A stretch of DNA of 62,430 bases, filler included, from Barthelona sp. PAP020 (taxonomy: Eukaryota), in NCBI GenBank assembly GCA_040182905.1. It is 7 parts of 7 records of this genome, joined end to end, with 100 filler letters (N's around TTAATTAATTAA, not from the genome) between each part and the next. Parts side by side here need not be neighbours in the genome. Positions count along the whole stretch, not along the records: positions 17,955 to 26,941 come from JARQWU010000442.1; 6 more parts are not named here. The stretch is one strand, 5' to 3'. Of this stretch, positions 1-57,250 are shown piece after piece. A program made the translations under genes and the position numbers. The notes beneath the pieces are model-generated. The model saw nothing but the letters and a program-made list of their open reading frames with translations. It did not search any database and was not told where the DNA came from. The first letter of the stretch is position 1; each line of letters begins with the position of its first letter.

Positions 1-1
1 A

Positions 2-187
2 ATAAAGCCAACTGAAGAAGAATATGTACCCAGTGATTTGGAGGATGACAGTGACTTTTATGCCTATGAAAGTGACAATGGAATGGATGATGATGAAGTA
101 TATGAGGAATCAGAAGACGAAGGTTTAACTTGGGATGAACAAGAAGCTAAGGCTCGTGAATATGATCAAAGAAGTGGATTTCAATAA
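2..187 (+). CDS. SPT16: 3' end of FACT complex subunit SPT16-like gene (5'-truncated)
   Basis: Manual translation IKPTEEEYVPSDLEDDSDF...ESEDEGLTWDEQEAKAREYDQRSGFQ*: an acidic tail plus the G-x-x-W-D-E-x-E motif typical of the SPT16 C-terminus. Confidence 0.65.
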   Translation: MKPTEEEYVPSDLEDDSDFYAYESDNGMDDDEVYEESEDEGLTWDEQEAKAREYDQRSGFQ

Positions 188-459
188 AACATAAAATGAA
201 TTAAAATTTATTTTTAAATACTATATTTTTGTTCATTTGGAAAGAATGGAGAAGGTTAACCAAACATAAAGGAAAAAAAAAAGAATATTGATAAAATTGA
301 TAATCAGGCAAATTATTGAAATTGCATTGAAAAGAAAAATGGGGAAATGCAATAATGAGGATAGAAAATGTGTATATAATACCTTTTTATGGTGAAAAGA
401 GATTCAAAGAGACAAAAAAAGAAAGGAAAAATATATTGTTTTTAATTGATTTTTTAACA

Positions 460-3400
460 ATGTTGGACATTGTTAAACAATTATATGCTGAAGGAAAACA
501 ATTATTAGAAAAAAAACCTGAAAAAGCATTAGAAAAATTCGAAGAATGTGAAAAACTTAATACAAATGAACATTATCGAAGTTATATTTCATTAGCCATT
601 GCAAAAGCAAATGAATTAATAGTCAATACAAATCCAAATGTGAAATATTTTAATTTATCGATAAATATATTGAAAACAAATTCGAACATTAACAATTTAG
701 ATGTAGGAGTATTACATCTTTTATCACGTATTACAGAAACAAATGAACATATGGAAGAAATATATATCACTCTTACTTCGAGTATAAAGCAAGATTTAAG
801 CTATTTAATAGAATTTGGGCTCAGTAATTTACCGGAACAAACAAGAAATTTACGAAATTTTATTTTGGATAATGAGAATGATGTAGTCAAGTATAAGTAT
901 CATTTATTGACGCAAATTTTTATAGCATATTATGAGAGTCTTTTTATTTCGAAAGAAAACAAAGAAAAGAAAAGATGTATATTTTATTCTGAATTAGCAG
1001 ATAATTGTATTTCTTCTGAGAAGTTTATTGGGTATGATTTAAAACAAATAACACAAATCTATCATATTTTTGAAAATATGCTGAATTCATGTTTGCTTAT
1101 TCCTGTTGAATATGATTCTAACATTATAAAGATGTTTAATTCGAATAATTGTTTTATTAAACTAGCAGATACGTTTAGATATGCTGATATTGAGTTTTTT
1201 AAAGGAAATTATGAAGAAAGTGAAAAAAAAATATTATATTGTTTGAATTTTTTAAAAGATAATTCAATTTGTATACCTTTTTTGATTGATAAAAGTTTAT
1301 TGATATATTTGACTAAAAGTTTAACATTTCGATTATTTTTGATTCAAATATTGAATGGAAAATATTTTGAAAGCAAATATTACAAAGAAATTTTAAATAA
1401 TATTAATATTAATAGTTCTAGCATTAATAATGATAGTGCTAACATTAATAATGAAAATAAATATTTGATTTTTATTCAAGAGTTGACTGAAATTATTTTT
1501 AATTTTTCAATGGTCACTTTGGCACCTATTTCTTCTTCTTTTTGTTCCTCTTCTTCTTCTTCTTCTTATTCTTTTCTAATTAATACATATATTGAAATAT
1601 CTATGTTATTATTAAAGACCAATTCTACTGAAGAAAAAGAAAAACTCAATGAATTATTTGAAATGTTAAAATCACAATATCCATTTAGTAAGAATATTAC
1701 AGCATTATTTGTTTTTTTAGCAGCAATACACAATTTTGATAACAATATAAAACCTGCCTTTCGTCTATTAGTAAATCAAAGAGATTCTACTTTACATTTA
1801 TTAATTAATCAATCAATATGTATCAGAAATTTATGGGAGATCAATATTTATTCAAAAAGATCTTCATTAATGCAAGTTAACAATAAAAATGAACAAATTT
1901 TCATTCGAAAGAAAGAAGAAGCTTTTAATTTCTTAATTAATACAATATTCAATTATCCAATAAACAATCTATTGAAGAAACACATATTTTCAGCATTAAT
2001 TCATGTTTTTCCTCAAAACATTGATAACTATGTTGATGTTGATGAGAAGAACAATAACAATATTCTGAAATGTGGTTTTTTTAATGAAACAATGATGAAT
2101 TCAAAGAATAAAGACAAAATCATTTCTTTTGATGAATTCATTTTCGATTATGAATCATTAATACAAAATATAAGAACTAAGACAGATCATTCATTGAGGA
2201 TTATCTTTATGAATGAATTTTTAAACAATCTATCCTTATGTATCATCAACAACAAAAATATTGTTGTATTTAATGAAGAAATAGTGGAAAAACAAGAAAT
2301 GGAAATGGGTAAACATTTGATTGAATTAAAAAGAAAGATGAATGAATATGGGTTTTCAGGGGGAGAATTTTTTAAAAAAAATTCAAATGTTTTAACAAGG
2401 AAGAGTCATTTAAATAATTTAAATGAAAATTTTGATGAAATGTTTGAAAAATTTCTTAAAATTTTGGATTTTTTCAAATGTTTTTTGGTTGGACAAAGAA
2501 AGAATAAAGATGATATAACAATGATCAGATTGATTCTCAAGAATGTTCAAAATGAGTTTTCATCATGTAATAACTTGAATGAAACGTTGTTAGAATATTT
2601 CATCGATTGTTTCAATGATCTTTGTCTAGCTTCACAGTTGAGGTTTGCTGAATTCATTTTTACATTTTCCTCTAAAGACAATTTCCAGTCAATAAAACAA
2701 TCTGCTAAACAATTAGTTGATTTTTTGCTAACATTAAAGTATCAATTTATAAGCAATGAAAGACATCCTCTTTTTTTAATTGTCGATGAGAAATTTCAAC
2801 AGTTACCATGGGAAGCAGTCAACACAACTGAAAACAATATTTATCGCATTTTTAATTTAAACCATCTAAATCAGCTTCTATCAAAATCAAATGAGATTAA
2901 TCATAAATTATTCTATTTGATCAACCCTCAGGGAGATTTATTACGAACTGAACAAAGATTTCAACCTATTTTATCTGCTATTGATGAATGGACTGGATTT
3001 TTAGGAAATGTAACAGATTCAAACATTGTTTCCCTATATGAGAACATCAAATTTGTTGATTCTTTCTTTTACATTGGACATGGCAATGGTTGGGATAAAA
3101 TTGATTTCAAAAAGTTTTTAGGCTGTAAATTCATGATGTTCTTTGGTTGTGGTTCCCTAAAAATTACGAAAAATGGGATTTTTCAGAGTCATGGTTTACA
3201 AATGGAATTGTTCAAAAAAAATTCAATAGTTTCTTTGATTGGAAATATTTGGGAAATAATTGACAATGTTTCGGACGAAATAAGCTTGAAACTTTTGGAA
3301 AATATTTTTACCAACACTTTGAAAACTTCTTATCAAAAGAGAAATTTTTCATCAATTTCTTTGGTTCGTTGGGGAATACCTATACAATTAAAAGCTACTG

Positions 3401-3603
3401 CTTTGAATAAAATTCATTTTGTCAGTGATTGTGACAATTTCAAAGAAGATATTTTCAAAAAAACCATTTTGGAAACAACTTTTGATTCTTTTGATCTTAA
3501 AACTCCACAAAGTAGAACAAAGATAAAACGTAAAATAAGACCAATGACTCCAAGAAAGATGAAATTTAGAAAAACGGAAAAAAATGATGAGGATCTCTTT
3601 TAA
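460..3603 (+). CDS. ESP1: Separase (peptidase C50)
   Basis: C-terminal motifs LIVDEKFQQLPWE, FYLINPQGDLLRTEQRF, FFYIGHGNG (catalytic His), MFFGCGS (catalytic Cys), LIGNIWEIID; likely start is the ATG at 460 (ORF open from 355). Confidence 0.9.
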   Translation: MLDIVKQLYAEGKQLLEKKPEKALEKFEECEKLNTNEHYRSYISLAIAKANELIVNTNPNVKYFNLSINILKTNSNINNLDVGVLHLLSRITETNEHMEEIYITLTSSIKQDLSYLIEFGLSNLPEQTRNLRNFILDNENDVVKYKYHLLTQIFIAYYESLFISKENKEKKRCIFYSELADNCISSEKFIGYDLKQITQIYHIFENMLNSCLLIPVEYDSNIIKMFNSNNCFIKLADTFRYADIEFFKGNYEESEKKILYCLNFLKDNSICIPFLIDKSLLIYLTKSLTFRLFLIQILNGKYFESKYYKEILNNININSSSINNDSANINNENKYLIFIQELTEIIFNFSMVTLAPISSSFCSSSSSSSYSFLINTYIEISMLLLKTNSTEEKEKLNELFEMLKSQYPFSKNITALFVFLAAIHNFDNNIKPAFRLLVNQRDSTLHLLINQSICIRNLWEINIYSKRSSLMQVNNKNEQIFIRKKEEAFNFLINTIFNYPINNLLKKHIFSALIHVFPQNIDNYVDVDEKNNNNILKCGFFNETMMNSKNKDKIISFDEFIFDYESLIQNIRTKTDHSLRIIFMNEFLNNLSLCIINNKNIVVFNEEIVEKQEMEMGKHLIELKRKMNEYGFSGGEFFKKNSNVLTRKSHLNNLNENFDEMFEKFLKILDFFKCFLVGQRKNKDDITMIRLILKNVQNEFSSCNNLNETLLEYFIDCFNDLCLASQLRFAEFIFTFSSKDNFQSIKQSAKQLVDFLLTLKYQFISNERHPLFLIVDEKFQQLPWEAVNTTENNIYRIFNLNHLNQLLSKSNEINHKLFYLINPQGDLLRTEQRFQPILSAIDEWTGFLGNVTDSNIVSLYENIKFVDSFFYIGHGNGWDKIDFKKFLGCKFMMFFGCGSLKITKNGIFQSHGLQMELFKKNSIVSLIGNIWEIIDNVSDEISLKLLENIFTNTLKTSYQKRNFSSISLVRWGIPIQLKATALNKIHFVSDCDNFKEDIFKKTILETTFDSFDLKTPQSRTKIKRKIRPMTPRKMKFRKTEKNDEDLF

Positions 3604-3745
3604 GATTGAAATAAACATTTTTCAAATATATTTTCTTATTGTTTGTTGTTTTTATACTGATAAAGCAGTTTTTTTTTTTTTTAATTGTTGTTTTGAAATT
3701 GATTGAAAAACCCAAAATGAATTCTCACTTTTTTTTCCATAGAAA

Positions 3746-6700
3746 ATGCAAAATATTCTTTTAGATTATCTTCAAAACGATAACAAAAAATTAGTTAAGG
3801 CAAAATTAATTTCAGCAAATCAAATTAATTGGAAAGGAGATGAAAAATTAAATAAGATTGTATCTTTTGAAGGAAAATTTTTAATCAGCACAAATAAAGG
3901 TATAATATATTTGATTAATAAGAATTTTTCAATTAAAAAGGAATTAAATGATCACAACAATCAAAATATTTCTTTTTTAAATGTTGTAAACAATGATTTA
4001 ATAATTACAGCTTCGAATAATTTGATAGTCTATGACAATAAATTAAATATTGTCTTTACACTTGATCTTCAAAAATATTCTCCTATCAGAAGCATAATTA
4101 AATTGCCAACATCAAATAATGATTATTTTTTTATTGATAAAAGCGGAATAATGATGGAATATAATGGTGAACTTGATACCTTTAAAGAAACAACAGTTTT
4201 TCCAAATGACATTTGTTGGGACATAAAACTAAGTTCAAATAACAAGTATATATGTACATCTACTGATGGTTATGGATTAAAAATTGTAGATTCAACTCAA
4301 TTTGAAGAAGTATTTGCCTATAAGTTAAATAATCAAATGGTATGTTTTTTTATGTTTGATAAGGATACACAGCATCTTATATTAAGTACATCTGATGAGA
4401 AAATTATTATTATTGATTTGGAAAATAAAGAAGAAAAAATTGTTGATTCTTTTGATAGTTGTATCGTTGATATTATTGAATATCAAGAATATGAAGGAAA
4501 TTATTTGTTAGGTCTTTCAATTTATGGTTATCTTTATGTGATAGAGAAGGATAAAGGTATCATTGTTGAAACTATCAAACATGATGAGTTGTTGCTCATT
4601 GGTGGTTGTTATTCAAAACCTTTACACATGGTATTAACCTTAGGACGCAGTAAACAATTTTCTGTTGAAGCATATGATGTGGTTTTTCTTAAAGATAAGC
4701 TTATTGAGTATTTGAATGAGAATTTTGAAGAATTAGTTTATGAATTGGTCAAATTGTCTAATGGAGGAAAAGTTCATGTTTTATCCAGATTGTTAGAACT
4801 TGGTTTGATACATTTGATTGATGACAAGAAAATGGTGATAGTTTTATTGAGTAAAGGTCTTCATATTGATGATAAGGAGATGAAAATGCTTGAAGAGTAT
4901 GCAGTTGAATATTTTTCTGTAAATTATTTGGATAACGTATATTTCAACAGGATACTTGAGAAAAGAGGAAAAGACAACAAATTGCAACTCCAAAAACTGG
5001 AATGCAAATTGACAAATGAACTTTCAATTAAAGGACAAAATGAATTAGTATCTTTGCAACTGGAAATGCTTAATAAAGTAGATGAATTGAATGAACAAGT
5101 TTCAAAAGTTGAAGAAGAAAATCGAAGACTGCAACAACGAATTCTTGATATTGAAAACGAAAAAATTGAAGAGATGAAAAAGGCACAACAACAAATCTCA
5201 GACATTGAAAACGAAAAAACTGAAGAGATAAAGAAGATACAACAACAAATATCAGATATTGAAAATGAAAATAAGAAGTTGCAAAGTGAATCAGAGAATG
5301 AAGAAAAACTATCCATTGAACTAAAAGAAAGACTTGAACCAATACTGTTTAATATTGCACACAACGAAAAATACAATTTTTTTGAAAATTTTGGACAGTT
5401 TTTATTGGCAAATTTGAATGATTATGATAAAACCAATGATTTATTAAAGAAAACCACTCTGATTACCTTTGCAAGAAATTCTTTATATTACCTAATCAAA
5501 TTTAATTATTTAAAGCAATTCATCTTCAAGTTGTCAAATCCAATCACTTATAAAAAGAGTTTATTAATGGATTTCAAACTAGATCTGGAAAATCCTTTAT
5601 TTTTAAGAAATTTTCAACAAGGAACTATTAAAAATTTAGAATTTTCTTTAGATGAAAAATACTTTGTTAGTATTATGTTGAATGGTTCTTGTATCTTGTG
5701 GGATTTCATTGGATTCAAACCATTAAAAGTTTATGAAGATTTTGAGTCTGGATGCTTTTTTAAAGCTAAATTGATTTTGTTTAATTCTAACAAGATTCAA
5801 GTTGTAAAATATCCTTTTGAAGAAAAAGATAGCAAAAGTTTTGTTTTTGCTGAAAAAATTGATCCCAATATTTTTACCATGGATGATCAACATTTAATTC
5901 TCTCAATTTTGGTTGAAGATATGAAAGAATGTATGAAATATGACTTTTTAAAATATGATGTTGATTCAAATACTGTTAGCAAATTTGAAGTCACTGCTGA
6001 TTTTAGAAATGGAAAAAATTTGGAAAGAATCATTAAACTGAAGAATTCCAAAACATTTAATAAATTGATTGTATATACTGAAATGCGAGTTTTACTTGTT
6101 GATCTATCCAATTTGAATAAAATAAATACAATTATTCCTGAATTAAATAAGGATCGTTTACCAATTTTGTATGATATCAAAAAAAAATATCATTTGATGT
6201 GTTCAAATGTTGGTGAAGTTTTTGAAAAAAAAATTATTTGTCAAAAGATTTCTGATTCTTCTTTTGATTTCAAAACAACTTTTAGCTGCATTGATTGTCC
6301 CAAAAATATTCAAGAACTAAAGATTATTGATTCTGATTCAAAATATGATTTAATTTTATATTGTATTGTTACAACAGATAAATTATTGATTTATTTGAAT
6401 AATTCAATCATTCATGTGCAAGAGTATAATTTTTTCGATAACAACAGTCCTCGACAGAATAGAGTCTTATTTTCCCCAAAATTGTCTTATATGTTTATTC
6501 TTTTGCATAATTATAATTGTATGGCTCCTCCTTTTGACAGGAGATTTAATTTGAATGTATTTGAGATCGTATCTTCAGTAAAAGAACTGTTGGTTGATAG
6601 CAATGGTTCTGACTATTGGGAGCTGTTAAAGCCTTTGATTATTAAAGAGTTTAATCACTTAAAGGAGAAGAATCATAATGGTTTAATTGAAACTTTCAAG

Positions 6701-7936: not shown

Positions 7937-8386
7937 AGTGTTTGTAGTAAAGTGAACGGATTTCACACTAAAGACAATATAAATGTATTTAAGGTTTCTT
8001 CTTGCAATTTCTGATGTTAATGGATGTAGGTTAGCAGTGCATACCACGATTTTATCAAGGACACCCACAGAAGAATAATCAAAAAAGATTTTGGATGAAG
8101 GAAAAATTATAAAAGATCACCCTGCTCACATCTCAACCACAATAACCTCCCATATCTAAGAGTTGGATATAAACTGTTCAGAAATTAGTTTGGCAACAAC
8201 AAAAATTTCACTGAAAGACGAAGCAAAGGAAGAACAAACCTGAAATACTCCTGCATATATAAAGCTAATAATCTCAAAAGAATTAAAATTTTTAAACTGG
8301 AAAAGAGGAGATCAAAACAATAAGAATTTTATTTCTAAAGGACCACACCTCTTCAAAATATGATTTTTTTTTCCAGATTCAAAGAA
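7937..8386 (+). mobile_element. Non-autonomous element sharing termini with the YR retrotransposon (degenerate copy)
   Basis: Starts AGTGTTTGTAGTAAAGTGAACGGATTTCAC..AAAGACAATATAAATG, homologous to the element 5' end; internal block similar to 17440-17530; ends T-run-CCAGATTC like the next copy. Confidence 0.7.
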
Positions 8387-8798
8387 ATGTTCGCAGCAAA
8401 GCGGACGGATTTCACGTAAAAAACAACATTAATGCGTTTAAGGTTTCTTCTTACAATTTCTGAAATTAATGGGTATCAAAATTGAAAAGCTCAAGTAAAA
8501 ATAAACGTAATCGTAAGAATTCAAAGATTAAGGATACAAGTAAACAGGTTAGGACAACAGGGAATATCAAACTCCCAGAAAGAGAACAGAAGCGGATATA
8601 TTTAAAGTGAATCAAGGGGCTAAAGGAAAGTATTACACTTTTCTTTAAATACCCACCCTATCTAGACCGGAAGCATTTCTTTTCTTTTTTAAGAGTGTTC
8701 TGAACCATCCACGCAAAACTACTCAGTTGCAAATACCCCCAAACTCTAACCGAGAACAATTATGAGTCTTTTTTTTTTTTTTTCCAGACTCTTGTGAA
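8387..8798 (+). mobile_element. Non-autonomous element (full ~410 bp copy)
   Basis: 5' ATGTTCGCAGCAAAGCGGACGGATTTCAC; 3' GAGTGTTCTGAACCATCCACGC...CCCCAAACTCTAACC...GTGAA; both ends match the autonomous element ends. Confidence 0.85.
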
Positions 8799-8889
8799 GC
8801 GCAGCGGGCATTTCATAAGAGAGCAACAACAAGAAAATGTTTGGATGCGTTTGTGTGAGTCAAGCAAAACCCACAATATGCTAGCCTGT
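8799..8889 (+). repeat. Start of a second related repeat subfamily, cut by gap
   Basis: GCGCAGCGGGCATTTCATAAG...GAGTCAAGCAAAA matches 35730-35802 (ACGTAGCGGGCATTTCACAAG...GAATCAAGCAAAA). Confidence 0.6.
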
Positions 8890-8989
8890 NNNNNNNNNNN
8901 NNNNNNNNNNNNNNNNNNNNNNNNNNNNNNNNNTTAATTAATTAANNNNNNNNNNNNNNNNNNNNNNNNNNNNNNNNNNNNNNNNNNNN
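8890..8989. other. Artificial contig spacer (N44-TTAATTAATTAA-N44); same at 17855-17954, 26942-27041, 35839-35938, 44711-44810, 53581-53680; plain N gap at 28855-29077
   Basis: Identical 100-nt spacer with six-frame stop linker at each site. Confidence 0.98.
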
Positions 8990-16178: not shown

Positions 16179-17284
16179 TCACCATTAGATTAAAAAATAA
16201 TGTGTTAATAGTACATTAGTATATTCGTATTTGAGGTTTTCAAATAATAAATAATTTCATTTGCATAAGCAATCGCGTTGTTTAAAGGAATTGTTACTCA
16301 TCCAATCTTTCATTGCTTATTTAAAACGAATCAGAAGTAAAAATGTTTTTTTTTGTTGTTTTTTTGTTTTCAAGTAATTTTAAGTGTTTATCATTTGCAA
16401 ATTAGAGGTTCCTTACTTTTTAGCTGAATATCTGCAGTGATTTTCTGTGCTCTTATTCACTCAAAAGACTTCACCGGTCTTTCCCCCTAAACTTCTTGAA
16501 AAAGGAATAAAACTCCTGATGATAGTTTGAAGCGATAAAATGATTGTAATAAATTGAAATAACATTTTGTTTTGTCCTTTTTGAACCCCATGCGGAATTT
16601 TGTTTGCTTTATTCATTTCATCCTAATTAAATAGGATTATTCCACAAAGGTTAAAATTGTGAGGCACTGTGAGCATTTCAAAAGAGAAAGCAAAGTTGGG
16701 AAAATACATGAATAGTTTTTGAAAGTCAAATAATATCCACATTGCGCAAACTATCTATATTTTTATATTCCAAAGAAAATAGGATTTAAGAGTAGTTGTG
16801 CAAAGTTTCAGCGTAACAAGTACTTCACAGAAAAAGCAGTGGAAGAGATGGATTTCATGACAAAGACAAACTGAACGTTGTTTGCATTTTATTGTTGCAT
16901 GTTTGATTGACAAATAAAACCAAAAATGAATTGAAAAACTTTATGATTGAAACAACTATTCTTATTTTGGTTCTAGATTGTCAACTATGATCAAAAACTT
17001 TGAAATACTCTCTGTTAAATAATAGTTACCCAAACTTAAGTATGAAAAGAACAGTTTTTAATCTAAGTTACTCAGATTTCAACAAAGAAAAATGGTAGAC
17101 CATTTGATTGCCAAGTGGATCAAAGTAATCATCATCACAAACGTATTCAATATTGAACAAACTGGTGACAAGCAACCCAACTTAACAATGAATAAGCAAA
17201 GGTTTTGGTGTGATGTACTATTGTGTCTTGTAAAACAAGCCAAATTCTCATTCTGTAATCTATGTAAGAGCTTTTGTATCATTT

Positions 17285-17692
17285 GAGTTCACAGCAAAGC
17301 GGAAGGATTTCACGTAAAAGACAATATAAATGTGTTTAAGGTTTCTTCTTGCAATTTCTGATATTAATGGATATCAAAATTGAAAGTGAAATAACAACAT
17401 AGAATCAAATGATTCAGGGTAATAAGGACGCAAATGTGCATAGTAGATTAGCAAGGAATACAAGATTTGATCAAGGAAACCCAAAGAAGAACAATCAAAA
17501 TTTATTAGCAAGAAGGAAAAAAATTATTAAACTTTTATTTAGATAATCACCACATCCACACCTAAGGTATTTCTTTATTTTTAAGAGTGTTCTTAACCAT
17601 CCACGCAAAACGACTCAGTTGCAAGTACCCCCAAACTCTAACCGAGAACAATAAAGATCTTTATAAAAATTTATTATTATATTTCGTGTGAA
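17285..17692 (+). mobile_element. Non-autonomous element (full ~408 bp copy)
   Basis: 5' GAGTTCACAGCAAAGCGGAAGGATTTCAC; 3' CCCCAAACTCTAACCGAGAACAATAAAG...TTTATTATTATATTTCGTGTGAA, homologous to the autonomous 3' end. Confidence 0.9.
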
Positions 17693-17700
17693 TAGCAAAG

Positions 17701-17854
17701 AGTGTTCGTAGCAAAGCGGACGGATTTCACGTAAAAGACAATATAAATGTGTTTAAGGTTTCTTCTTGCAATTTCTGATATTAATGGATATCAAAATTGA
17801 AAGTGAAATAACAACAAAGAATCAAATGATTCAGGGTAATAAGGATGCAAGTGT
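17701..17854 (+). mobile_element. Non-autonomous element, tandem next copy, cut by gap
   Basis: AGTGTTCGTAGCAAAGCGGACGGATTTCAC is identical to the first 30 nt of the autonomous element; near-identical to 17285-17438. Confidence 0.9.
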
Positions 17855-17954
17855 NNNNNNNNNNNNNNNNNNNNNNNNNNNNNNNNNNNNNNNNNNNNTT
17901 AATTAATTAANNNNNNNNNNNNNNNNNNNNNNNNNNNNNNNNNNNNNNNNNNNN

Positions 17955-18740
17955 GTACGGCCAGTTGAGGCCATGCAACATTTCCAGTCTTATTGTTTGA
18001 CTCGTTGGTGTTGAGTCCCACGGTGCACCCTCTACGAACTTCTTCGCGGTCTTCTTCATTAAATCAATCTGCGGAGACAGATCCACCCCCGCATGGCTTA
18101 AAGTTTTCAAAATATCACCGAGCAGCATGGCTGCTGGGATCATAAGTTTTGCTTTTTTAAAGGAGAACGCCCTTTTGCTTCCAGGGCGCTCTTCATAAAA
18201 TTTAATTCCACTGAATATCTCCTCCATCCATTGATGGTGGCGATACACAGATTCCAGTAAATTATTTTCTAACTTTTCCTCCTTATTCTTCTCCTTTTCT
18301 CTTTCTTTAGTCCAATTTTCATTTTGGCTTTTTAACAAATTCATGACTTCCTCTATTTGGTCTGAAAGGAGCGACGTTTGCTCCTCTAATGTCTGGAAAT
18401 TTTGGTTAATTTCGGCGTTAGGTTCTTCAGTCATAGGAAGGTTCTTTCCCAGGGCGAAACTTAAACAAAATAGTGATATAGAGCTGTTTAGAATATTGTT
18501 TACTTGACCTCATTTATCAATCAGATAAATTCACGTTCTTTCATTGTGTTCCGAATTAAAATAATTCTGATTGGAAACTAATTTTTACTTTACTTACAGC
18601 TTATGTAACGTTCTTATTCTTATTATAAATCATTGTATATGTATTGGATCATATTTAACAATCAGAAGTGCAAGAATAGAACCTAGAACAATGTTTATTT
18701 TGTCTTTTGGGTGAAATCCGTCCGCTTTGCTACGAACACT
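17955..18740 (-). mobile_element. YR retrotransposon copy A (5' part only; ORF start at 18434)
   Basis: 5' UTR plus first ~160 codons; protein identical to copy C over this stretch. Confidence 0.9.
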
Positions 18741-18849
18741 TTCACTCGACAAAATAATAAACATTTGATAAATTCACTCGACAAAATAATAAACATTTGA
18801 TAAAAGCTTTTTCACTCGACAAAATAATAAACATTTGATAAAAGCTTTT
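18741..18849 (-). repeat. Triple reiteration of the element 3' terminus
   Basis: TTCACTCGACAAAATAATAAACATTTGATAAA starts at 18741 (32 nt), 18773 (38 nt) and 18811 (continues into copy B). Confidence 0.95.
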
Positions 18850-21800
18850 ACTGTTCAAGGTTAGAGTTTGGGTTACTTGTCACTGGTCTGTTGTGCGTAG
18901 ATTGGTTCAGAACTCTCCTGTCCAGAATCCTTCTGAATCGAATCTGCGTACACAGAACGAGCACAGTACAATTCAACCATTGAGGTAGACTTCCATCCGC
19001 CCATCTGCTTCAGGACGTCCAAATCCCCTGGTGAATTCCCATTCTCCAATGCCTTGAACATAGACCTTGCCCTTCCTCTTCTAAACGAGTGCAGGGTCAA
19101 GGGATAATTTAAATTCATTTCTTTATTGAACCTATTCAATTCTTTGTTTAAATTCTTATTAATCTCTTTAATCTTATTTCCATCGTTTGTTAAACTTTTT
19201 ACTTTTCCATTCTTTACTCTCCATTCATAATTACCAAATATCTTCTTTTCTGTGTCTGTCTTTCCTTTTAACTCTTTCCAAAATATTGACACCTCTTTAA
19301 CATTGCTCACCTTTGGGCAATACATAAATATTAACGCTGTTGTGGGTCCAATTTTTACTTCAATTGAACCTCCCTCAATATCACTTCTTCTCGAACATGT
19401 AAAATACATTGTACATGCCGCATCTATCATATCGTACTTCATTTCTTCTGGTTGGCTGCTATTCGTAATTATGAATCTGCATAATTGTGCTAAATGTCTT
19501 CTACGAATAGCTGACTTCGGTCTGTGATCTTCAGCTGTTGGTGGTCTTAACCTCCTTTGCTTTGCCATCATTAATTTCTTCATGTTCTGGAATCCTGGTC
19601 CAGCACTCCAGCCAATAGCTTTCCAAAAGTACATCACTCCTGCGTATACTCTTCCTAACGTTTCAGTTTTCATCCTAAAATTTCCGTTGGTATCCTTTCT
19701 TTCACCTTCTGAATCGATAAATTCATGAAGCAGTGACTCCAATGTGTGATCAACTTTATCCATATCCTTACTTCTTCCCCTCTTCTTACAATAGCTTAAG
19801 AATCGGGTATAGTATCCTTCGTACTGATCCCATGTAGCTTTTGCTACTCCTAACTTCATAGTCTCCCACACTAAGGAATCACTCCATGAGTACTTCTCGA
19901 ATTCCTTCTTTACCTCGTCATAATACCCTATATCACCTTCAAATAGTCCTTGGAATATCTTCGATCTGATTTCTATACTTCTATTTCCATCAACATAATT
20001 CACTAACGGTCTCCATGCAGGGTAATCTCCATAACAAATTCCTTCAACTTCAACATCAACCCCAAATCGGGCTGCTCTTAATATTAAATCTAAAACTACA
20101 TTTTCAATGGTTTCCTTATAATACATCTTATTTCCAATTTTGCGAACTGCAGTGTAAAATAGGATTGAATCGTATCCGATTGCTGCCCAATCCTCACCTA
20201 GCTCTTCTTCTTCCTTATCTTCTAATTCTCTTTTCTCTTCATTAACTTCTTCTTCTTCTTTCCATAAATCATCTCTTAATTCTACCGGAAACTCTCCGGT
20301 CTTTATCCTAACTTTGTCTGCTATTCTCCTTATCGATTTTGACTTCCCTTGCAAATCTCTTCCTGTCCTATTCTTTAATATTGGACAACGTCTTAATGCT
20401 GTATACGACGGATACATATAACTTGGTACTTTGAATGACTCAGGACAAAATGATATATCCGAAAATACAACTCCTTTTGTTACCTCCACATTCTTGCCTC
20501 TTGACAACATATCTGCCACACTATTCCTTTCAGTAGGAATCCAGTACGGAAGTATTTGGCAGTTTAACTCTACTACCAACTCCCAAATTTTCTTTGACAG
20601 TGAACTCAATTTCATATTTGAACTCTTTTGTTTCCTAAATGCAGCCAAGGCGTTTTGATTATCAATCAACCATATCCAACACGCGTCCTTGGCTTGCTTC
20701 TTCATTTTCATTAATGCTTTCCATAAAGCTTCTAATTCAATAACAGCAATATTCTTTTCTTCGTCTTTAACTACTTCCTTATGCATATTAATCTTACTTT
20801 GATCTTTCTGTTCTAGTACCCACCCGATACCCTTTAATGAGGCATCAGTGGCAATCACTCCTGTAACTACCCTCGGGCATAACTCTCCTTTAATCTCTTC
20901 TTTCAAAACTTCTTCTAACTTTTCTTTTAAACAACTAACAATCTCTAATCTTCTCTTTCCATGCTTACTTATCAATTCTTTTAAATCTTTTGATCTATAA
21001 TAATGTTTCTTGTGATGTATCACATTTCCTAATTCCAGTGCAATTCCTCTATATCTCTGAGAAACGATACTCGCAGCTTGTAACTTCCCTTCCAATGAGA
21101 TTGCACTTTCAATCGTTAAATCGTCTAACATCTTTAACATCTTCTTTCTTTTCAATTCTGGCAAACTAATTATCCTGTTCTTTGTGTCTATCTTAAATCC
21201 TAAATACTCAACTTCTGTTGTTGGTTTTTGTACCTTTGATTCTTTAACCTTAAATCCTACTTGCTTCAGTAATTTCATCATCGTTTCAACGTTCTTCTTG
21301 CATTCCTCTAAAGTATTCCCTCCAATCAGTAAATCGTCCACATATTGCAAAACAAATATTCCTTTTGCTCTTGCAGCATCCACTGGCACTTGCAATGCCA
21401 GTGAAAAAATCTGAGCTGATACTGATGATCCGAACGGTAACCTTTGAGCTGCATATTTTTCTCCATCAACTTCCACTACTGTCTGAGACAACCATTCATC
21501 ACTAAGTGGTATATGTGTATACCCTTCCTTTATGTCTAAGACCGCGGCATATTTAGGTATTAATGGGAAATATCTATAACAATTAATTTCATGTGGCCAC
21601 ATCATACTTACCGAATTTAATGGTGTACAGTCCAATATTGGTCTAATTGTTCCATCTTGTTTTGGAACTGCACCCAAAGCTGCTTCACGTTCTACAGGAC
21701 CTTTATACTTTGTTAAAACATTTTCTTCACCTTCAGTCCATTTTGATAACACTTCTTTTAACCTATCACCAGCCCAGTGATCTACCTTATTTTCTCCTTT

Positions 21801-23012
21801 TAATTCATCGTCAATAAAAGTTGGGGCTGCAGTAACAATTTCTTCAAGTAAGTTTCTTTGTTCTTTGCTGTATCTCAACTCTTTTGCTAACTTCATGAAA
21901 GCATCAGGATTCCAAGCCCCTGTGCTTGTTTCTCCAATGGTAACAGCTACGTTCGACTTTTTTAGCACAAGTCGGCTGTTAGATTCAATCTTCAGATTTT
22001 GATCTGATTTCGACCTGTTTTTTATGTCTTCACTTTTGCCTTTAGTCAGTTTTTTTTTGATAAATTGCAGTTGTTGTTTTTCAACCTCTATTTTTTCTTT
22101 CGTTCTTAGCAATCCATCGAGCTTCTTATCAATAGTATCAAAAAAATAAATGTTGTTGCTTTTACCCTTTTCAAACTTGTTTGACCTCTGATAATCTTCC
22201 GGCTTTGAGAAGCCGTTTAGGTCAGGGTACGGCCAGTTGAGGCCATGCAACATTTCCAGTCTTATTGTTTGACTCGTTGGTGCTGAGTCCCACGGTGCAC
22301 CCTCTACGAACCTCTTTGCGGTCTTCTTCATTAAATCAATCTGCGGAGACAGATCCACCCCCGCATGGCTTAAAGTTTTCAAAATATCACCGAGCAGCAT
22401 GGCTGCTGGGATCATTAGCTTTGCTTTCTTAAAGGAGAACGCCCTTTTGCTTCCAGGGCGCTCTTCATAAAATTTAATTCCACTGAATATCTCCTCCATC
22501 CATTGATGGTGGCGATACACAGATTCCAGTAAATTATTTTCTAAATTTTCCTCCTTATTCTTCTCCTTTTCTCTTTCTTTAGTCCAATTGTCATTTTGGC
22601 TTTTTAACAAATTCATGATTTCCTCTATTTGGTCTGAAAGGAGCGACGTTTGCTCCTCTAATGTCTGGAAATTTTGGTTAATTTCGGCGTTAGGTTCTTC
22701 AGTCATAGGAAGGTTCTTTCCCAGGGCGAAACTTAAACAAAATAGTGATATAGAGCTGTTTAGAATATTGTTTACTTGACCCCATTTATCAATCAGATAA
22801 ATTCACGTTCTTTCATTGTGTTCCGAATTAAAATAATTCTGATTGGAAACTAATTTTTACTTTACTTACAGCTTATGTAACGTTCTTATTCTTATTATAA
22901 ATCATTGTATATGTATTGGATCATATTTAACAATCAGAAGTGCAAGAATAGAACCTAGAACAATGTTTATTTTGTCTTTTGGGTGAAATCCGTCCGCTTT
23001 GCTACGAACACT
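18811..23012 (-). mobile_element. Complete ~4.2 kb tyrosine-recombinase (DIRS-order) retrotransposon, copy B
   Basis: Unit defined by a 4201-bp period with copy C; ~305 nt 5' UTR, single ORF, ~62 nt 3' UTR. Confidence 0.92.
18873..22706 (-). CDS. Single polyprotein: Gag-like coiled-coil, RT, RNase H, linker, tyrosine recombinase (1277 aa)
   Basis: RT: LDIKEGYTHIPL, LPFGSSVSAQIF, YVDDLLI, YLGF; RNase H: IATDASLKGIG, IAVIELEAL, IDNQNAL, NSVADMLSR; YR: ATWDQYEGYYTRF, CSRRSD (R), HSFRRG (HxxR), GGWKS (W), VELY (Y). Confidence 0.95.
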   Translation of the reverse strand: MTEEPNAEINQNFQTLEEQTSLLSDQIEEIMNLLKSQNDNWTKEREKEKNKEENLENNLLESVYRHHQWMEEIFSGIKFYEERPGSKRAFSFKKAKLMIPAAMLLGDILKTLSHAGVDLSPQIDLMKKTAKRFVEGAPWDSAPTSQTIRLEMLHGLNWPYPDLNGFSKPEDYQRSNKFEKGKSNNIYFFDTIDKKLDGLLRTKEKIEVEKQQLQFIKKKLTKGKSEDIKNRSKSDQNLKIESNSRLVLKKSNVAVTIGETSTGAWNPDAFMKLAKELRYSKEQRNLLEEIVTAAPTFIDDELKGENKVDHWAGDRLKEVLSKWTEGEENVLTKYKGPVEREAALGAVPKQDGTIRPILDCTPLNSVSMMWPHEINCYRYFPLIPKYAAVLDIKEGYTHIPLSDEWLSQTVVEVDGEKYAAQRLPFGSSVSAQIFSLALQVPVDAARAKGIFVLQYVDDLLIGGNTLEECKKNVETMMKLLKQVGFKVKESKVQKPTTEVEYLGFKIDTKNRIISLPELKRKKMLKMLDDLTIESAISLEGKLQAASIVSQRYRGIALELGNVIHHKKHYYRSKDLKELISKHGKRRLEIVSCLKEKLEEVLKEEIKGELCPRVVTGVIATDASLKGIGWVLEQKDQSKINMHKEVVKDEEKNIAVIELEALWKALMKMKKQAKDACWIWLIDNQNALAAFRKQKSSNMKLSSLSKKIWELVVELNCQILPYWIPTERNSVADMLSRGKNVEVTKGVVFSDISFCPESFKVPSYMYPSYTALRRCPILKNRTGRDLQGKSKSIRRIADKVRIKTGEFPVELRDDLWKEEEEVNEEKRELEDKEEEELGEDWAAIGYDSILFYTAVRKIGNKMYYKETIENVVLDLILRAARFGVDVEVEGICYGDYPAWRPLVNYVDGNRSIEIRSKIFQGLFEGDIGYYDEVKKEFEKYSWSDSLVWETMKLGVAKATWDQYEGYYTRFLSYCKKRGRSKDMDKVDHTLESLLHEFIDSEGERKDTNGNFRMKTETLGRVYAGVMYFWKAIGWSAGPGFQNMKKLMMAKQRRLRPPTAEDHRPKSAIRRRHLAQLCRFIITNSSQPEEMKYDMIDAACTMYFTCSRRSDIEGGSIEVKIGPTTALIFMYCPKVSNVKEVSIFWKELKGKTDTEKKIFGNYEWRVKNGKVKSLTNDGNKIKEINKNLNKELNRFNKEMNLNYPLTLHSFRRGRARSMFKALENGNSPGDLDVLKQMGGWKSTSMVELYCARSVYADSIQKDSGQESSEPIYAQQTSDK

Positions 23013-26000
23013 TCACTCGACAAAATAATAAACATTTGATAAAAGCTTTTACTGTTCAAGGTTAGAGTTTGGGTTACTTGTCACTGGTCTGTTGTGCGTA
23101 GATTGGTTCAGAACTCTCCTGTCCAGAATCCTTCTGAATCGAATCTGCGTACACAGAACGAGCACAGTACAATTCAACCATTGAGGTAGACTTCCATCCG
23201 CCCATCTGCTTCAGGACGTCCAAATCCCCTGGTGAATTCCCATTCTCCAATGCCTTGAACATAGACCTTGCCCTTCCTCTTCTAAACGAGTGCAGGGTCA
23301 AGGGATAATTTAAATTCATTTCTTTATTGAACCTATTCAATTCTTTGTTTAAATTCTTATTAATCTCTTTAATCTTATTTCCATCGTTTGTTAAACTTTT
23401 TACTTTTCCATTCTTTACTCTCCATTCATAATTACCAAATATCTTCTTTTCTGTGTCTGTCTTTCCTTTTAACTCTTTCCAAAATATTGACACCTCTTTA
23501 ACATTGCTCACCTTTGGGCAATACATAAATATTAACGCTGTTGTGGGTCCAATTTTTACTTCAATTGAACCTCCCTCAATATCACTTCTTCTCGAACATG
23601 TAAAATACATTGTACATGCCGCATCTATCATATCGTACTTCATTTCTTCTGGTTGGCTGCTATTCGTAATTATGAATCTGCATAATTGTGCTAAATGTCT
23701 TCTACGAATAGCTGACTTCGGTCTGTGATCTTCAGCTGTTGGTGGTCTTAACCTCCTTTGCTTTGCCATCATTAATTTCTTCATGTTCTGGAATCCTGGT
23801 CCAGCACTCCAGCCAATAGCTTTCCAAAAGTACATCACTCCTGCGTATACTCTTCCTAACGTTTCAGTTTTCATCCTAAAATTTCCGTTGGTATCCTTTC
23901 TTTCACCTTCTGAATCGATAAATTCATGAAGCAGTGACTCCAATGTGTGATCAACTTTATCCATATCCTTACTTCTTCCCCTCTTCTTACAATAGCTTAA
24001 GAATCGGGTATAGTATCCTTCGTACTGATCCCATGTAGCTTTTGCTACTCCTAACTTCATAGTCTCCCACACTAAGGAATCACTCCATGAGTACTTCTCG
24101 AATTCCTTCTTTACCTCGTCATAATACCCTATATCACCTTCAAATAGTCCTTGGAATATCTTCGATCTGATTTCTATACTTCTATTTCCATCAACATAAT
24201 TCACTAACGGTCTCCATGCAGGGTAATCTCCATAACAAATTCCTTCAACTTCAACATCAACCCCAAATCGGGCTGCTCTTAATATTAAATCTAAAACTAC
24301 ATTTTCAATGGTTTCCTTATAATACATCTTATTTCCAATTTTGCGAACTGCAGTGTAAAATAGGATTGAATCGTATCCGATTGCTGCCCAATCCTCACCT
24401 AGCTCTTCTTCTTCCTTATCTTCTAATTCTCTTTTCTCTTCATTAACTTCTTCTTCTTCTTTCCATAAATCATCTCTTAATTCTACCGGAAACTCTCCGG
24501 TCTTTATCCTAACTTTGTCTGCTATTCTCCTTATCGATTTTGACTTCCCTTGCAAATCTCTTCCTGTCCTATTCTTTAATATTGGACAACGTCTTAATGC
24601 TGTATACGACGGATACATATAACTTGGTACTTTGAATGACTCAGGACAAAATGATATATCCGAAAATACAACTCCTTTTGTTACCTCCACATTCTTGCCT
24701 CTTGACAACATATCTGCCACACTATTCCTTTCAGTAGGAATCCAGTACGGAAGTATTTGGCAGTTTAACTCTACTACCAACTCCCAAATTTTCTTTGACA
24801 GTGAACTCAATTTCATATTTGAACTCTTTTGTTTCCTAAATGCAGCCAAGGCGTTTTGATTATCAATCAACCATATCCAACACGCGTCCTTGGCTTGCTT
24901 CTTCATTTTCATTAATGCTTTCCATAAAGCTTCTAATTCAATAACAGCAATATTCTTTTCTTCGTCTTTAACTACTTCCTTATGCATATTAATCTTACTT
25001 TGATCTTTCTGTTCTAGTACCCACCCGATACCCTTTAATGAGGCATCAGTGGCAATCACTCCTGTAACTACCCTCGGGCATAACTCTCCTTTAATCTCTT
25101 CTTTCAAAACTTCTTCTAACTTTTCTTTTAAACAACTAACAATCTCTAATCTTCTCTTTCCATGCTTACTTATCAATTCTTTTAAATCTTTTGATCTATA
25201 ATAATGTTTCTTGTGATGTATCACATTTCCTAATTCCAGTGCAATTCCTCTATATCTCTGAGAAACGATACTCGCAGCTTGTAACTTCCCTTCCAATGAG
25301 ATTGCACTTTCAATCGTTAAATCGTCTAACATCTTTAACATCTTCTTTCTTTTCAATTCTGGCAAACTAATTATCCTGTTCTTTGTGTCTATCTTAAATC
25401 CTAAATACTCAACTTCTGTTGTTGGTTTTTGTACCTTTGATTCTTTAACCTTAAATCCTACTTGCTTCAGTAATTTCATCATCGTTTCAACGTTCTTCTT
25501 GCATTCCTCTAAAGTATTCCCTCCAATCAGTAAATCGTCCACATATTGCAAAACAAATATTCCTTTTGCTCTTGCAGCATCCACTGGCACTTGCAATGCC
25601 AGTGAAAAAATCTGAGCTGATACTGATGATCCGAACGGTAACCTTTGAGCTGCATATTTTTCTCCATCAACTTCCACTACTGTCTGAGACAACCATTCAT
25701 CACTAAGTGGTATATGTGTATACCCTTCCTTTATGTCTAAGACCGCGGCATATTTAGGTATTAATGGGAAATATCTATAACAATTAATTTCATGTGGCCA
25801 CATCATACTTACCGAATTTAATGGTGTACAATCCAATATTGGTCTGATTGTTCCATCTTGTTTTGGAACTGCACCCAAAGCTGCTTCACGTTCTACAGGA
25901 CCTTTATACTTTGTTAAAACATTTTCTTCACCTTCAGTCCATTTTGATAACACTTCTTTTAACCTATCACCAGCCCAGTGATCTACTTTATTTTCTCCTT

Positions 26001-26941
26001 TTAATTCATCGTCAATAAAAGTTGGGGCTGCAGTAACAATTTCTTCAAGTAAGTTTCTTTGTTCCTTGCTGTATCTCAATTCTTTTGCTAACTTCATGAA
26101 AGCATCAGGATTCCAAGCTCCTGTGCTTGTTTCTCCAATGGTGACGGCTACGTTTGACCTTTTTAACACAAGTCGGCTGTCCGATTCAATCTTCAGATTT
26201 TGATCTGATTTCGACCTGTTTTTTATGTCTTCACTTTTGCCTTTAGTCAGTTTTTTTTTGATAAATTGCAGTTGTTGTTTTTCAACCTCTATCTTTTCTT
26301 TCGTTCTTAGCAATCCATCGAGCTTCTTATCAATAGTATCAAAAAAATAAATGTTGTTGCTTTTACCCTTTTCAAACTTGTTTGACCTCTGATGATCTTC
26401 CGGCTTTGAGAAGCCGTTTAGGTCAGGGTACGGCCAGTTGAGGCCATGCAACATTTCCAGTCTTATTGTTTGACTCGTTGGTGTTGAGTCCCACGGTGCA
26501 CCCTCTACGAACTTCTTCGCGGTCTTCTTCATTAAATCAATCTGCGGAGACAGATCCACCCCCGCATGGCTTAAAGTTTTCAAAATATCACCGAGCAGCA
26601 TGGCTGCTGGGATCATAAGTTTTGCTTTTTTAAAGGAGAACGCCCTTTTGCTTCCAGGGCGCTCTTCATAAAATTTAATTCCACTGAATATCTCCTCCAT
26701 CCATTGATGGTGGCGATACACAGATTCCAGTAAATTATTTTCTAACTTTTCCTCCTTATTCTTCTCCTTTTCTCTTTCTTTAGTCCAATTTTCATTTTGG
26801 CTTTTTAACAAATTCATGACTTCCTCTATTTGGTCTGAAAGGAGCGACGTTTGCTCCTCTAATGTCTGGAAATTTTGGTTAATTTCGGCGTTAGGTTCTT
26901 CAGTCATAGGAAGGTTCTTTCCCAGGGCGAAACTTAAACAA
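23012..26941 (-). mobile_element. YR retrotransposon copy C (5' UTR cut by gap)
   Basis: Direct head-to-tail repeat of copy B. Confidence 0.92.
23074..26907 (-). CDS. Gag-RT-RNase H-YR polyprotein (1277 aa), second intact copy
   Basis: Same motifs as copy B; 8 amino-acid differences, all in the first ~250 residues. Confidence 0.95.
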   Translation of the reverse strand: MTEEPNAEINQNFQTLEEQTSLLSDQIEEVMNLLKSQNENWTKEREKEKNKEEKLENNLLESVYRHHQWMEEIFSGIKFYEERPGSKRAFSFKKAKLMIPAAMLLGDILKTLSHAGVDLSPQIDLMKKTAKKFVEGAPWDSTPTSQTIRLEMLHGLNWPYPDLNGFSKPEDHQRSNKFEKGKSNNIYFFDTIDKKLDGLLRTKEKIEVEKQQLQFIKKKLTKGKSEDIKNRSKSDQNLKIESDSRLVLKRSNVAVTIGETSTGAWNPDAFMKLAKELRYSKEQRNLLEEIVTAAPTFIDDELKGENKVDHWAGDRLKEVLSKWTEGEENVLTKYKGPVEREAALGAVPKQDGTIRPILDCTPLNSVSMMWPHEINCYRYFPLIPKYAAVLDIKEGYTHIPLSDEWLSQTVVEVDGEKYAAQRLPFGSSVSAQIFSLALQVPVDAARAKGIFVLQYVDDLLIGGNTLEECKKNVETMMKLLKQVGFKVKESKVQKPTTEVEYLGFKIDTKNRIISLPELKRKKMLKMLDDLTIESAISLEGKLQAASIVSQRYRGIALELGNVIHHKKHYYRSKDLKELISKHGKRRLEIVSCLKEKLEEVLKEEIKGELCPRVVTGVIATDASLKGIGWVLEQKDQSKINMHKEVVKDEEKNIAVIELEALWKALMKMKKQAKDACWIWLIDNQNALAAFRKQKSSNMKLSSLSKKIWELVVELNCQILPYWIPTERNSVADMLSRGKNVEVTKGVVFSDISFCPESFKVPSYMYPSYTALRRCPILKNRTGRDLQGKSKSIRRIADKVRIKTGEFPVELRDDLWKEEEEVNEEKRELEDKEEEELGEDWAAIGYDSILFYTAVRKIGNKMYYKETIENVVLDLILRAARFGVDVEVEGICYGDYPAWRPLVNYVDGNRSIEIRSKIFQGLFEGDIGYYDEVKKEFEKYSWSDSLVWETMKLGVAKATWDQYEGYYTRFLSYCKKRGRSKDMDKVDHTLESLLHEFIDSEGERKDTNGNFRMKTETLGRVYAGVMYFWKAIGWSAGPGFQNMKKLMMAKQRRLRPPTAEDHRPKSAIRRRHLAQLCRFIITNSSQPEEMKYDMIDAACTMYFTCSRRSDIEGGSIEVKIGPTTALIFMYCPKVSNVKEVSIFWKELKGKTDTEKKIFGNYEWRVKNGKVKSLTNDGNKIKEINKNLNKELNRFNKEMNLNYPLTLHSFRRGRARSMFKALENGNSPGDLDVLKQMGGWKSTSMVELYCARSVYADSIQKDSGQESSEPIYAQQTSDK

Positions 26942-27041
26942 NNNNNNNNNNNNNNNNNNNNNNNNNNNNNNNNNNNNNNNNNNNNTTAATTAATTAANNN
27001 NNNNNNNNNNNNNNNNNNNNNNNNNNNNNNNNNNNNNNNNN

Positions 27042-27188
27042 GAACATTTGAATGAAGACAAGGATATGTATGATGATAAGAAGAAAGAACTTGAAGGAAT
27101 ATTCAATCCTATTATCACCAAGATTTATGGTTCTCAAGAGATGCCTCAACAAGATCAAGGTTCTTATGAAGGATATGATGAATTATAA
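27042..27188 (+). CDS. BiP: 3' end of ER Hsp70 (BiP), 5'-truncated by gap
   Basis: Manual translation EHLNEDKDMYDDKKKELEGIFNPIITKIYGSQ...EGYDEL*: Hsp70 lid end (KKKELExxxNPIIxKxY) plus xDEL ER-retention-like tail. Confidence 0.8.
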   Translation, partial: EHLNEDKDMYDDKKKELEGIFNPIITKIYGSQEMPQQDQGSYEGYDEL

Positions 27189-35838: not shown

Positions 35839-36069
35839 NNNNNNNNNNNNNNNNNNNNNNNNNNNNNNNNNNNNNNNNNNNNTTAATTAATTAANNNNNN
35901 NNNNNNNNNNNNNNNNNNNNNNNNNNNNNNNNNNNNNNTTGGGCATCTGAATCCACGTGAGTTTTCCCCAAACCTTAAGCTAACTCGTTTCGTTGTTCAC
36001 TGAACAACTCATACCTCATAAATATCTAATAAAAAATGAGCGGCTGCAATTGAATCTTGGTTATCAAGT

Positions 36070-53580: not shown

Positions 53581-53680
53581 NNNNNNNNNNNNNNNNNNNN
53601 NNNNNNNNNNNNNNNNNNNNNNNNTTAATTAATTAANNNNNNNNNNNNNNNNNNNNNNNNNNNNNNNNNNNNNNNNNNNN

Positions 53681-53786: not shown

Positions 53787-53817
<31 letters not shown>
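53681..53817 (+). repeat. Copy of the 36146 repeat followed by A26
   Basis: About 95 nt near-identity with 36146-36241. Confidence 0.75.

Positions 53818-57188: not shown

Positions 57189-57250
<62 letters not shown>
57189..57250. repeat. (GA)31 microsatellite
   Basis: Direct read. Confidence 0.98.

Follow-up and report, generated by a model that had tools for sequence, protein, structure and literature searches.

A terminus-anchored reiteration at a head-to-tail junction of a tyrosine-recombinase retroelement from Barthelona sp. PAP020, and its possible origin in restarts of reverse transcription

Introduction

The DIRS-1 model left a question that has stood ever since: how cDNA is primed in tyrosine-recombinase retroelements, and how they arrive at an intermediate that is circular or bears a junction. 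Even the DIRS-1 circle junction could not be amplified (PMC7192593). The question is raised again by a contig of Barthelona sp. PAP020 (JARQWU010000442.1, assembly GCA_040182905.1), in which units of an element of this class lie head to tail. At one of the two junctions the terminal sequence of the unit is started three times. If it is what it appears to be, a multimer junction with short, terminus-anchored restarts would mark the site at which cDNA begins, and would point to template switching as the means by which the ends are joined. Coming from a single junction on a single contig of an AT-rich eukaryote, the reiteration should for now be taken as a lead rather than a result.

The window and the element contig

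The stretch of DNA analysed here (the window, 62,430 nt including filler) brings together seven draft-assembly pieces, separate from one another and each of about 8.8-9.0 kb; pieces side by side in it are not neighbours in the genome. They are joined by six identical 100-nt linkers (44 N, TTAATTAATTAA, 44 N) at 8890-8989, 17855-17954, 26942-27041, 35839-35938, 44711-44810, and 53581-53680, the second of which directly precedes the element contig. One of the seven pieces also has an internal gap of 223 N. GC content across the window is 24-38%. Apart from the element contig, the pieces carry ordinary eukaryotic genes (separase-like, ELMO, MutS-like, ankyrin) with long uninterrupted ORFs in the standard code; the best match to the MutS-like ORF has 26% identity. 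Dispersed repeat families, with 68-94% identity and no relation to the element ORF, are found near contig ends (36146-36241, 36448-36543, and 53681-53776; 8538-8683 and 35547-35692), a perfect (GA)31 microsatellite lies at 57189-57250, and a run of 26 A at 53792-53817.

The contig at 17955-26941 is element sequence throughout, with no flank inside it. Its first 514 nt (17955-18468) are exactly its last 514 nt (26428-26941), and it therefore closes to a cycle of 8473 nt, made up of two 4201-nt units and 71 nt; an end overlap was looked for in the other six contigs of the window and found in none (0/6). This cycle would represent either a dimer circle or a higher-order or collapsed tandem array in which two unit types alternate. 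Three stretches of unit can be distinguished along the contig, all on the minus strand: a partial unit A (17955-18739; unit positions 3417-4201), which includes the N-terminal part of the ORF and the 5' UTR and ends at the sense 5' terminus, GTGTTC; a full unit B (18811-23011; 4201 nt); and a unit C (23012-26941), of which the contig end leaves unit positions 1-3930.

For comparison with B, the second unit was taken as 23012-26941 plus 18469-18739. The two differ by 25 substitutions (21 transitions and 4 transversions) and no indels. All of the differences fall within sense positions 230-1382, in the 5' third; the other 3048 nt are identical, and with them the part from the RT to the recombinase. 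The ORF contains 24 of the 25, 8 of them replacements and the other 16 silent, and is intact in both units. They look like live variants that have recombined, rather than the products of sequencing error. The mosaic pattern would fit recombination between two variants, and copy choice would also give such a pattern.

The ORF and the class of the element

Each unit has one fused ORF on the minus strand. In unit B it spans 18873-22706 (ATG at 22706, stop at 18873-18875) and encodes 1277 aa, or 1309 aa from stop to stop. In the stop-to-stop numbering, the predicted domains are an RT at 380-538, an RNase H at 649-767, and a tyrosine recombinase at about 990-1290. The RT domain scores above the Pfam cut-off (RVT_1, E = 1.6e-21, 77 bits). 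Its distant matches, which are weak, are to pol proteins of the Ty3/gypsy type that have rve and RT_RNaseH domains, and it is predicted to be of the LTR-retrotransposon type and not of the R2 or retroplasmid clade. The RNase H families fall below their Pfam cut-offs (E = 1.8e-4 to 7.6e-3), in a region conserved in two of two homologues. The recombinase region likewise falls below the cut-off of 27.1 bits for Phage_integrase (E = 7.7e-5, 23 bits); the motifs SRRSD, HSFRRGRA, and GGW...Y (HxxR and W...Y) are kept in both homologues, which carry PF00589, and the best match to a structure model of residues 990-1215 is the Cre recombinase, a weak one (E = 5e-4, TM 0.2-0.3). These homologues, transcriptome relatives with the same architecture and 39-40% identity, were the only two among the candidates scored. 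Residues 770-990, the stretch in which elements of the PAT and DIRS-1 types would carry a methyltransferase-like domain, match no Pfam family and have a predicted model with pLDDT below 50; in a model of residues 770-1215, the first 217 residues are unreliable.

A Pfam search of the ORF found neither an rve (DDE integrase) nor a protease family, and no inverted repeat of at least 60 nt, of the kind that DIRS-1-type inverted terminal repeats would give, was found in the unit. Judged by these domains, the element is a DIRS-order tyrosine-recombinase retroelement with RT, RNase H, and recombinase in one fused ORF. Among metagenomes, a scan with an 18-nt conserved motif gave 37 loci, all of them chance matches (0/37 by tblastn; one 32-nt blastn match), and a search of viral contigs gave 51 pattern matches and no relatives.

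The two junctions

At the clean junction (23011|23012), the + strand reads GAACAC|TTCACTCG, with one start and no extra base, in agreement with an earlier note on this DNA. At the aberrant junction, it reads ...TGCTACGAACAC (GAACAC, ending at 18739), a T at 18740, a 32-nt start, a 38-nt start, and, from 18811 on, the unit in full. The first reiteration (18741-18772, + strand), TTCACTCG...GATAAA, is the unit's first 32 nt on that strand, which on the sense strand are its final 32 nt; the second (18773-18810, + strand) is its first 38 nt. The extra sequence thus comes to 71 nt (18740-18810). The 32-mer occurs four times in the window without mismatches (at 18741, 18773, 18811, and 23012), and not at all in 100 shuffles. 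The earlier note's account of a terminal sequence started three times at the tandem junction, for 32 nt, for 38 nt, and in full, is therefore confirmed. One detail has to be amended: it let copy A end with the T at 18740, but this base is absent at the clean junction and hence is one extra base, lying between ...GAACAC and the first TTCACTCG and turning TT into TTT. A change in homopolymer length, slippage, or an error of base calling could account for it.

The aberrant junction's three starts (3/3) and the lone start of the clean one fall on the same base; read on the sense strand, the 32- and the 38-nt segment both finish exactly at the element's 3' end (...GAGTGAA). The joints of the aberrant junction have 0-1 nt of microhomology, and clear non-templated bases are absent. 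The points at which the short segments leave off (+32 and +38) are internal in the unit. Compared with what end-to-end switching would give, the clean junction is an end-to-end join, while the aberrant one combines an end-to-end join with one added T and two joins that leave at +32 and +38. There are two junctions only, on one contig, so that the reiteration is one of two junction types in the closed cycle.

Related copies and the position of the terminus

Related non-coding sequence, with about 80% identity to the unit ends, is found in the opposite orientation at the ends of contigs 1 and 2 of the window. In contig 1 it forms a head-to-tail array of ORF-less units (7938-8889, + strand) with A starts at 7938, 8387, and about 8794, the nearby host gene ending at 7921. 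In contig 2 (17160-17854, + strand), a related 3' fragment is followed by an ORF-less A-x-B unit (17285-17701) and by the next A start (17702-17854), which runs to the contig end. The ORF-less units are about 407-449 nt long and are arranged head to tail, each having block A on its 5' side and block B on its 3' side, with a spacer between them; they resemble Ngaro solo AB repeats or non-autonomous derivatives. Those in contig 1 have 64-72% identity to the reference copy, and all neighbouring related units together 64-96%.

In four of four related A blocks, homology to the element stops at the sense GTGTTC base, and what lies beyond it is different in each of the four; one of the blocks starts 17 nt past the end of the host ORF, giving a host|A boundary. 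On this comparison of copies, the 5' boundary is supported independently of the reiteration. Since the stop is common to all four, the reiteration is anchored at the true end of the element, and the earlier statement that every restart begins at the exact terminus holds: all of the starts are at one base, which abuts the boundary common to the relatives. On the 3' side the related junctions are not uniform, 17284|17285 being without about 20 nt of the 3' end and others having different tails. Nine nt at 17693-17701, between ...GTGTGAA and GTGTTCG in contig 2, were considered as a second reiteration, repeating as they do 8 nt of the 5' block; this reading was dropped because a similar CAAAGAA precedes a contig 1 A start, and the nine nt may be an ancient portion of the 3' end.

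Pairing across the junction

The clean junction is flanked by a perfect 10-nt inverted repeat, with one arm on the 5' (A) side (22967-22976; sense +36 to +45) and its partner on the 3' (B) side (23019-23028; sense -17 to -8), 42 nt apart. At the other junction, both reiterated segments, of 32 and of 38 nt, include the partner arm. In the predicted sense-strand fold spanning this junction (22955-23045), positions +24 to +52 are taken up by pairing with the last ~25 nt. The tip, an apical loop with a 6-bp mini-hairpin, is made of sense nt 1-23 (GTGTTCGTAGCAAAGCGGACGGA; 22989-23011, minus strand), the stretch that the relatives have kept best. The fold has an energy of -23.0 kcal/mol, against -12.8 +/- 2.6 in shuffles, none of which was as good (0/200; z = -3.9); the antisense fold has z = -2.6, while the 150 nt at the sense 3' end, folded alone, have no special structure (z = -0.37).

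One relative has the same layout with a 7-nt arm (TTATATT/AATATAA, compared with TTATTTTGTC/GACAAAATAA here), and with one change on both sides. The relatives' junction folds are no better than those of shuffles, of which 86/200 and 104/200 fold as well. With four junctions, RNAalifold keeps the 6-bp apical hairpin alone, with no covariation or compensatory change, a third relative keeping just the tip, and duplex energies are no better than in shuffles at five of seven junctions. We regard the predicted junction pairing as real in this element, and its conservation among relatives as unproven. The hairpin, which forms only with sequence from both sides of the junction, may be a recombinase site or, in the RNA, a 5'-3' panhandle; in a linear RNA, end pairing would place the 3' end beside the 5' region. 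An Rfam search for ribozymes in 17000-27100 gave two sub-threshold snoRNA-like matches inside the ORF and none at the junction; a search for a tRNA or tRNA-like end gave no tRNAs with ARAGORN and no 3' CCA.

Possible origins of the reiteration

The best reading of the reiteration, although we put its probability at only about 40%, is that it reflects reverse transcription starting afresh from the RNA 3' end, with the multimer arising by a jump from the 5' to the 3' end. The RNA would run from GTGTTC... to ...GAGTGAA (3' end ...GUCGAGUGAA), and first-strand synthesis would begin at its 3' end. Synthesis would have broken off after 32 nt and then after 38 nt, each time restarting at a 3' end, before a full copy was made. 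On reaching the 5' end, the enzyme would move to a 3' end kept near by 5'-3' pairing, giving multimeric cDNA; the recombinase might then resolve this, or integrate it at the junction.

Several observations argue for restarts of this kind. The + strand is antisense to the ORF, which as the earlier note held gives it the polarity of first-strand cDNA, and the order of unit end, short starts, and full unit is that of a first strand growing 5' to 3'. The related ORF-less units are likewise head to tail. The predicted junction fold also speaks for restarts, as does the mosaic of the two units. By our own estimate, the chance that one random tandem duplication would fall within 1 nt of the terminus is about 1%, in ~367 noncoding nt; a second segment of different length but with the same start needs a further coincidence, so that a process tied to the terminus is to be preferred to random slippage. 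There is also a precedent in Neurospora, whose retroplasmid RTs are described as switching template to a 3' end and as making concatemers that are resolved by recombination (PMC8363836).

Against restarts, only one of the three events can be an end-to-end jump, the other two having internal ends at +32 and +38, and there is one aberrant junction on one contig. To our knowledge, end-to-end jumping is not established for an RT of the LTR-retrotransposon type. The joints show no clear non-templated bases, the searches above gave no ribozyme or tRNA-like end, and the junction fold stands out from shuffles in this element but not in its relatives. The 64-72% identity of the ORF-less neighbours in contig 1 would fit successive insertions at least as well as it would fit concatemeric cDNA. 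The earlier note's proposal of an RT jumping from 5' to 3' end with abortive starts therefore stands in part: terminus anchoring, polarity, complementary ends, and the retroplasmid precedent favour it, while the internal exits and the different RT clade do not. Its suggestion that such jumping replaces LTR-guided strand transfer is moot. Tyrosine-recombinase retroelements are a class without LTRs, so this would be no departure, and they have circle-junction and split-repeat models of their own in print.

The events could instead have taken place in DNA, in a chromosomal array whose units came to lie head to tail by unequal exchange or because the recombinase inserted one at a junction already present, a 38-nt segment beside the junction then slipping and one copy losing 6 nt. 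TRF, which reports the array at 18740-18849, does describe it as an ordinary 38-nt array with indels, and the junction inverted repeat could stall replication and make a hotspot, the hairpin perhaps promoting slippage. The divergence of the neighbouring related units (64-96% to the reference copy) is as expected from successive insertions, and TATE is described in tandem clusters (PMC6681497) and DIRS-1 as preferring to insert into DIRS-1 (PMC7192593). Such a history nevertheless takes no fewer than three events (a gain of 1 nt in addition to two duplications, or to one duplication and a 6-nt deletion), each of which must hold one boundary exactly at an independently defined terminus, and the 0-1 nt of microhomology at the joints also speaks against it; we consider it somewhat unlikely, if quite conceivable. 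An aborted or off-site reaction of the tyrosine recombinase, between the true site and +32 or +38 in a partner copy, or the repair of a break there, would account for the fixed end, which is the integration boundary seen beside a host gene, and for the inverted repeats flanking the site, as at recombinase sites; the related junction at 17284|17285, without about 20 nt of 3' end, would be a product of the reciprocal kind. The sequences at +32 and +38 are nonetheless unlike the junction core, the spacing of 42 nt between the arms is far beyond that of canonical sites, and two nested events are required. Tyrosine recombinases, moreover, are as a rule precise and depend on homology where the crossover takes place. 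A by-product of the recombinase therefore seems highly improbable.

An artefact of assembly or sequencing, with the assembler threading reads of a multi-copy repeat or with a chimeric clone or read, is suggested by a contig that consists of the repeat only, overlaps itself by 514 nt, and is among the unplaced ~9-kb pieces of a gapped draft assembly. The three starts are letter-perfect and in register, though, and the 25 substitutions between the units, with their bias to transitions and silent sites and their lack of indels, have the appearance of real variants. Consensus quality is good by the evidence of the long intact ORFs in the other contigs, and an insert of 71 nt fits inside single Sanger or long reads; with these points against it, we think an artefact improbable.

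Restarts of reverse transcription can also be placed in a more far-reaching scheme, in which the element replicates like a retroplasmid. Reverse transcription would start at a bare RNA 3' end, the paired ends would let concatemeric cDNA be made round a template or from RNA to RNA, and the recombinase would cut circles at the hairpin-flanked junction. The contig would then be an extrachromosomal dimer circle, left unresolved as one of its junctions was spoiled by the abortive restarts and the extra base. As a whole this scheme is speculative, and we give it little more than an outside chance.

Comparison with known systems

The enzymes and the direct-repeat logic would fit a place with elements of the Ngaro/PAT kind, which have split direct repeats (A1-[ORFs]-B1A2B2). 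Like them, the present element has RT, RNase H, and tyrosine recombinase with no DDE integrase or protease, as well as direct repeats and an internal copy of the B|A junction. As to the split-repeat layout, the relatives in the window give A-x-B units in direct order and one host|A boundary; the element contig is free of flanks. The ORF-less A-B units beside host genes are comparable to the "solo AB repeats" described for the Ngaros of Cafeteria (PMC8547959). Unlike Ngaro/PAT elements, this one has a single fused ORF of 1277 aa, 2.1 full units in a closed cycle rather than one unit with A2B2, element flanks that would lie outside the contig, and a terminus-anchored reiteration at one junction.

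TATE, from Leishmania braziliensis, is similar in that its copies are reported to be head to tail and assemblies to break in them (PMC6681497). It differs in its association with telomeric repeats and its three ORFs; this comparison is by description and not by sequence, and the published passages on TATE compared here do not mention a reiteration at junctions (PMC6681497). DIRS-1, from Dictyostelium discoideum, is of the same order, and the ends of the present element are complementary across the junction. In the DIRS-1 model, as outlined in PMC7192593, an internal complement of both ends rebuilds the circle junction, and the cDNA is single-stranded. In DIRS-1 the terminal repeats are inverted and a complementary region lies inside the element; here there is only a 10-nt inverted repeat at the junction.

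In Penelope-like elements, partial tandem copies ("pseudo-LTRs") are ascribed to the copying step. These elements have an RT of another clade, a GIY-YIG nuclease and not a recombinase, and hammerhead ribozymes in their repeats. The end-to-end concatemers of retroplasmid and R2 RTs have whole 5' ends joined to whole 3' ends, and a few bases are often added at the joins. As in the present element, the concatemers of the Mauriceville and Varkud retroplasmids and the R2 RT are head to tail, with junctions that start at the template 3' end, and those of the retroplasmids are described as being resolved by recombination (PMC8363836); unlike them, it has an RT of a different clade, no 3' CCA or tRNA-like end, and exits from inside the template in two of three events.

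For tyrosine-recombinase retroelements, circle-junction models, split-repeat models, and tandem clusters are all in print (PMC7192593, PMC8547959, PMC6681497), and the head-to-tail arrangement is not new in itself, tandem clusters being known for TATE (PMC6681497). In the literature searched, no description was found of junction reiterations of this kind in elements of the DIRS order. What does appear to be new is, first, the fusion of all domains in a single ORF, in a lineage with few representatives; second, the closing of two units to a dimer; and third, restarts anchored at the terminus.
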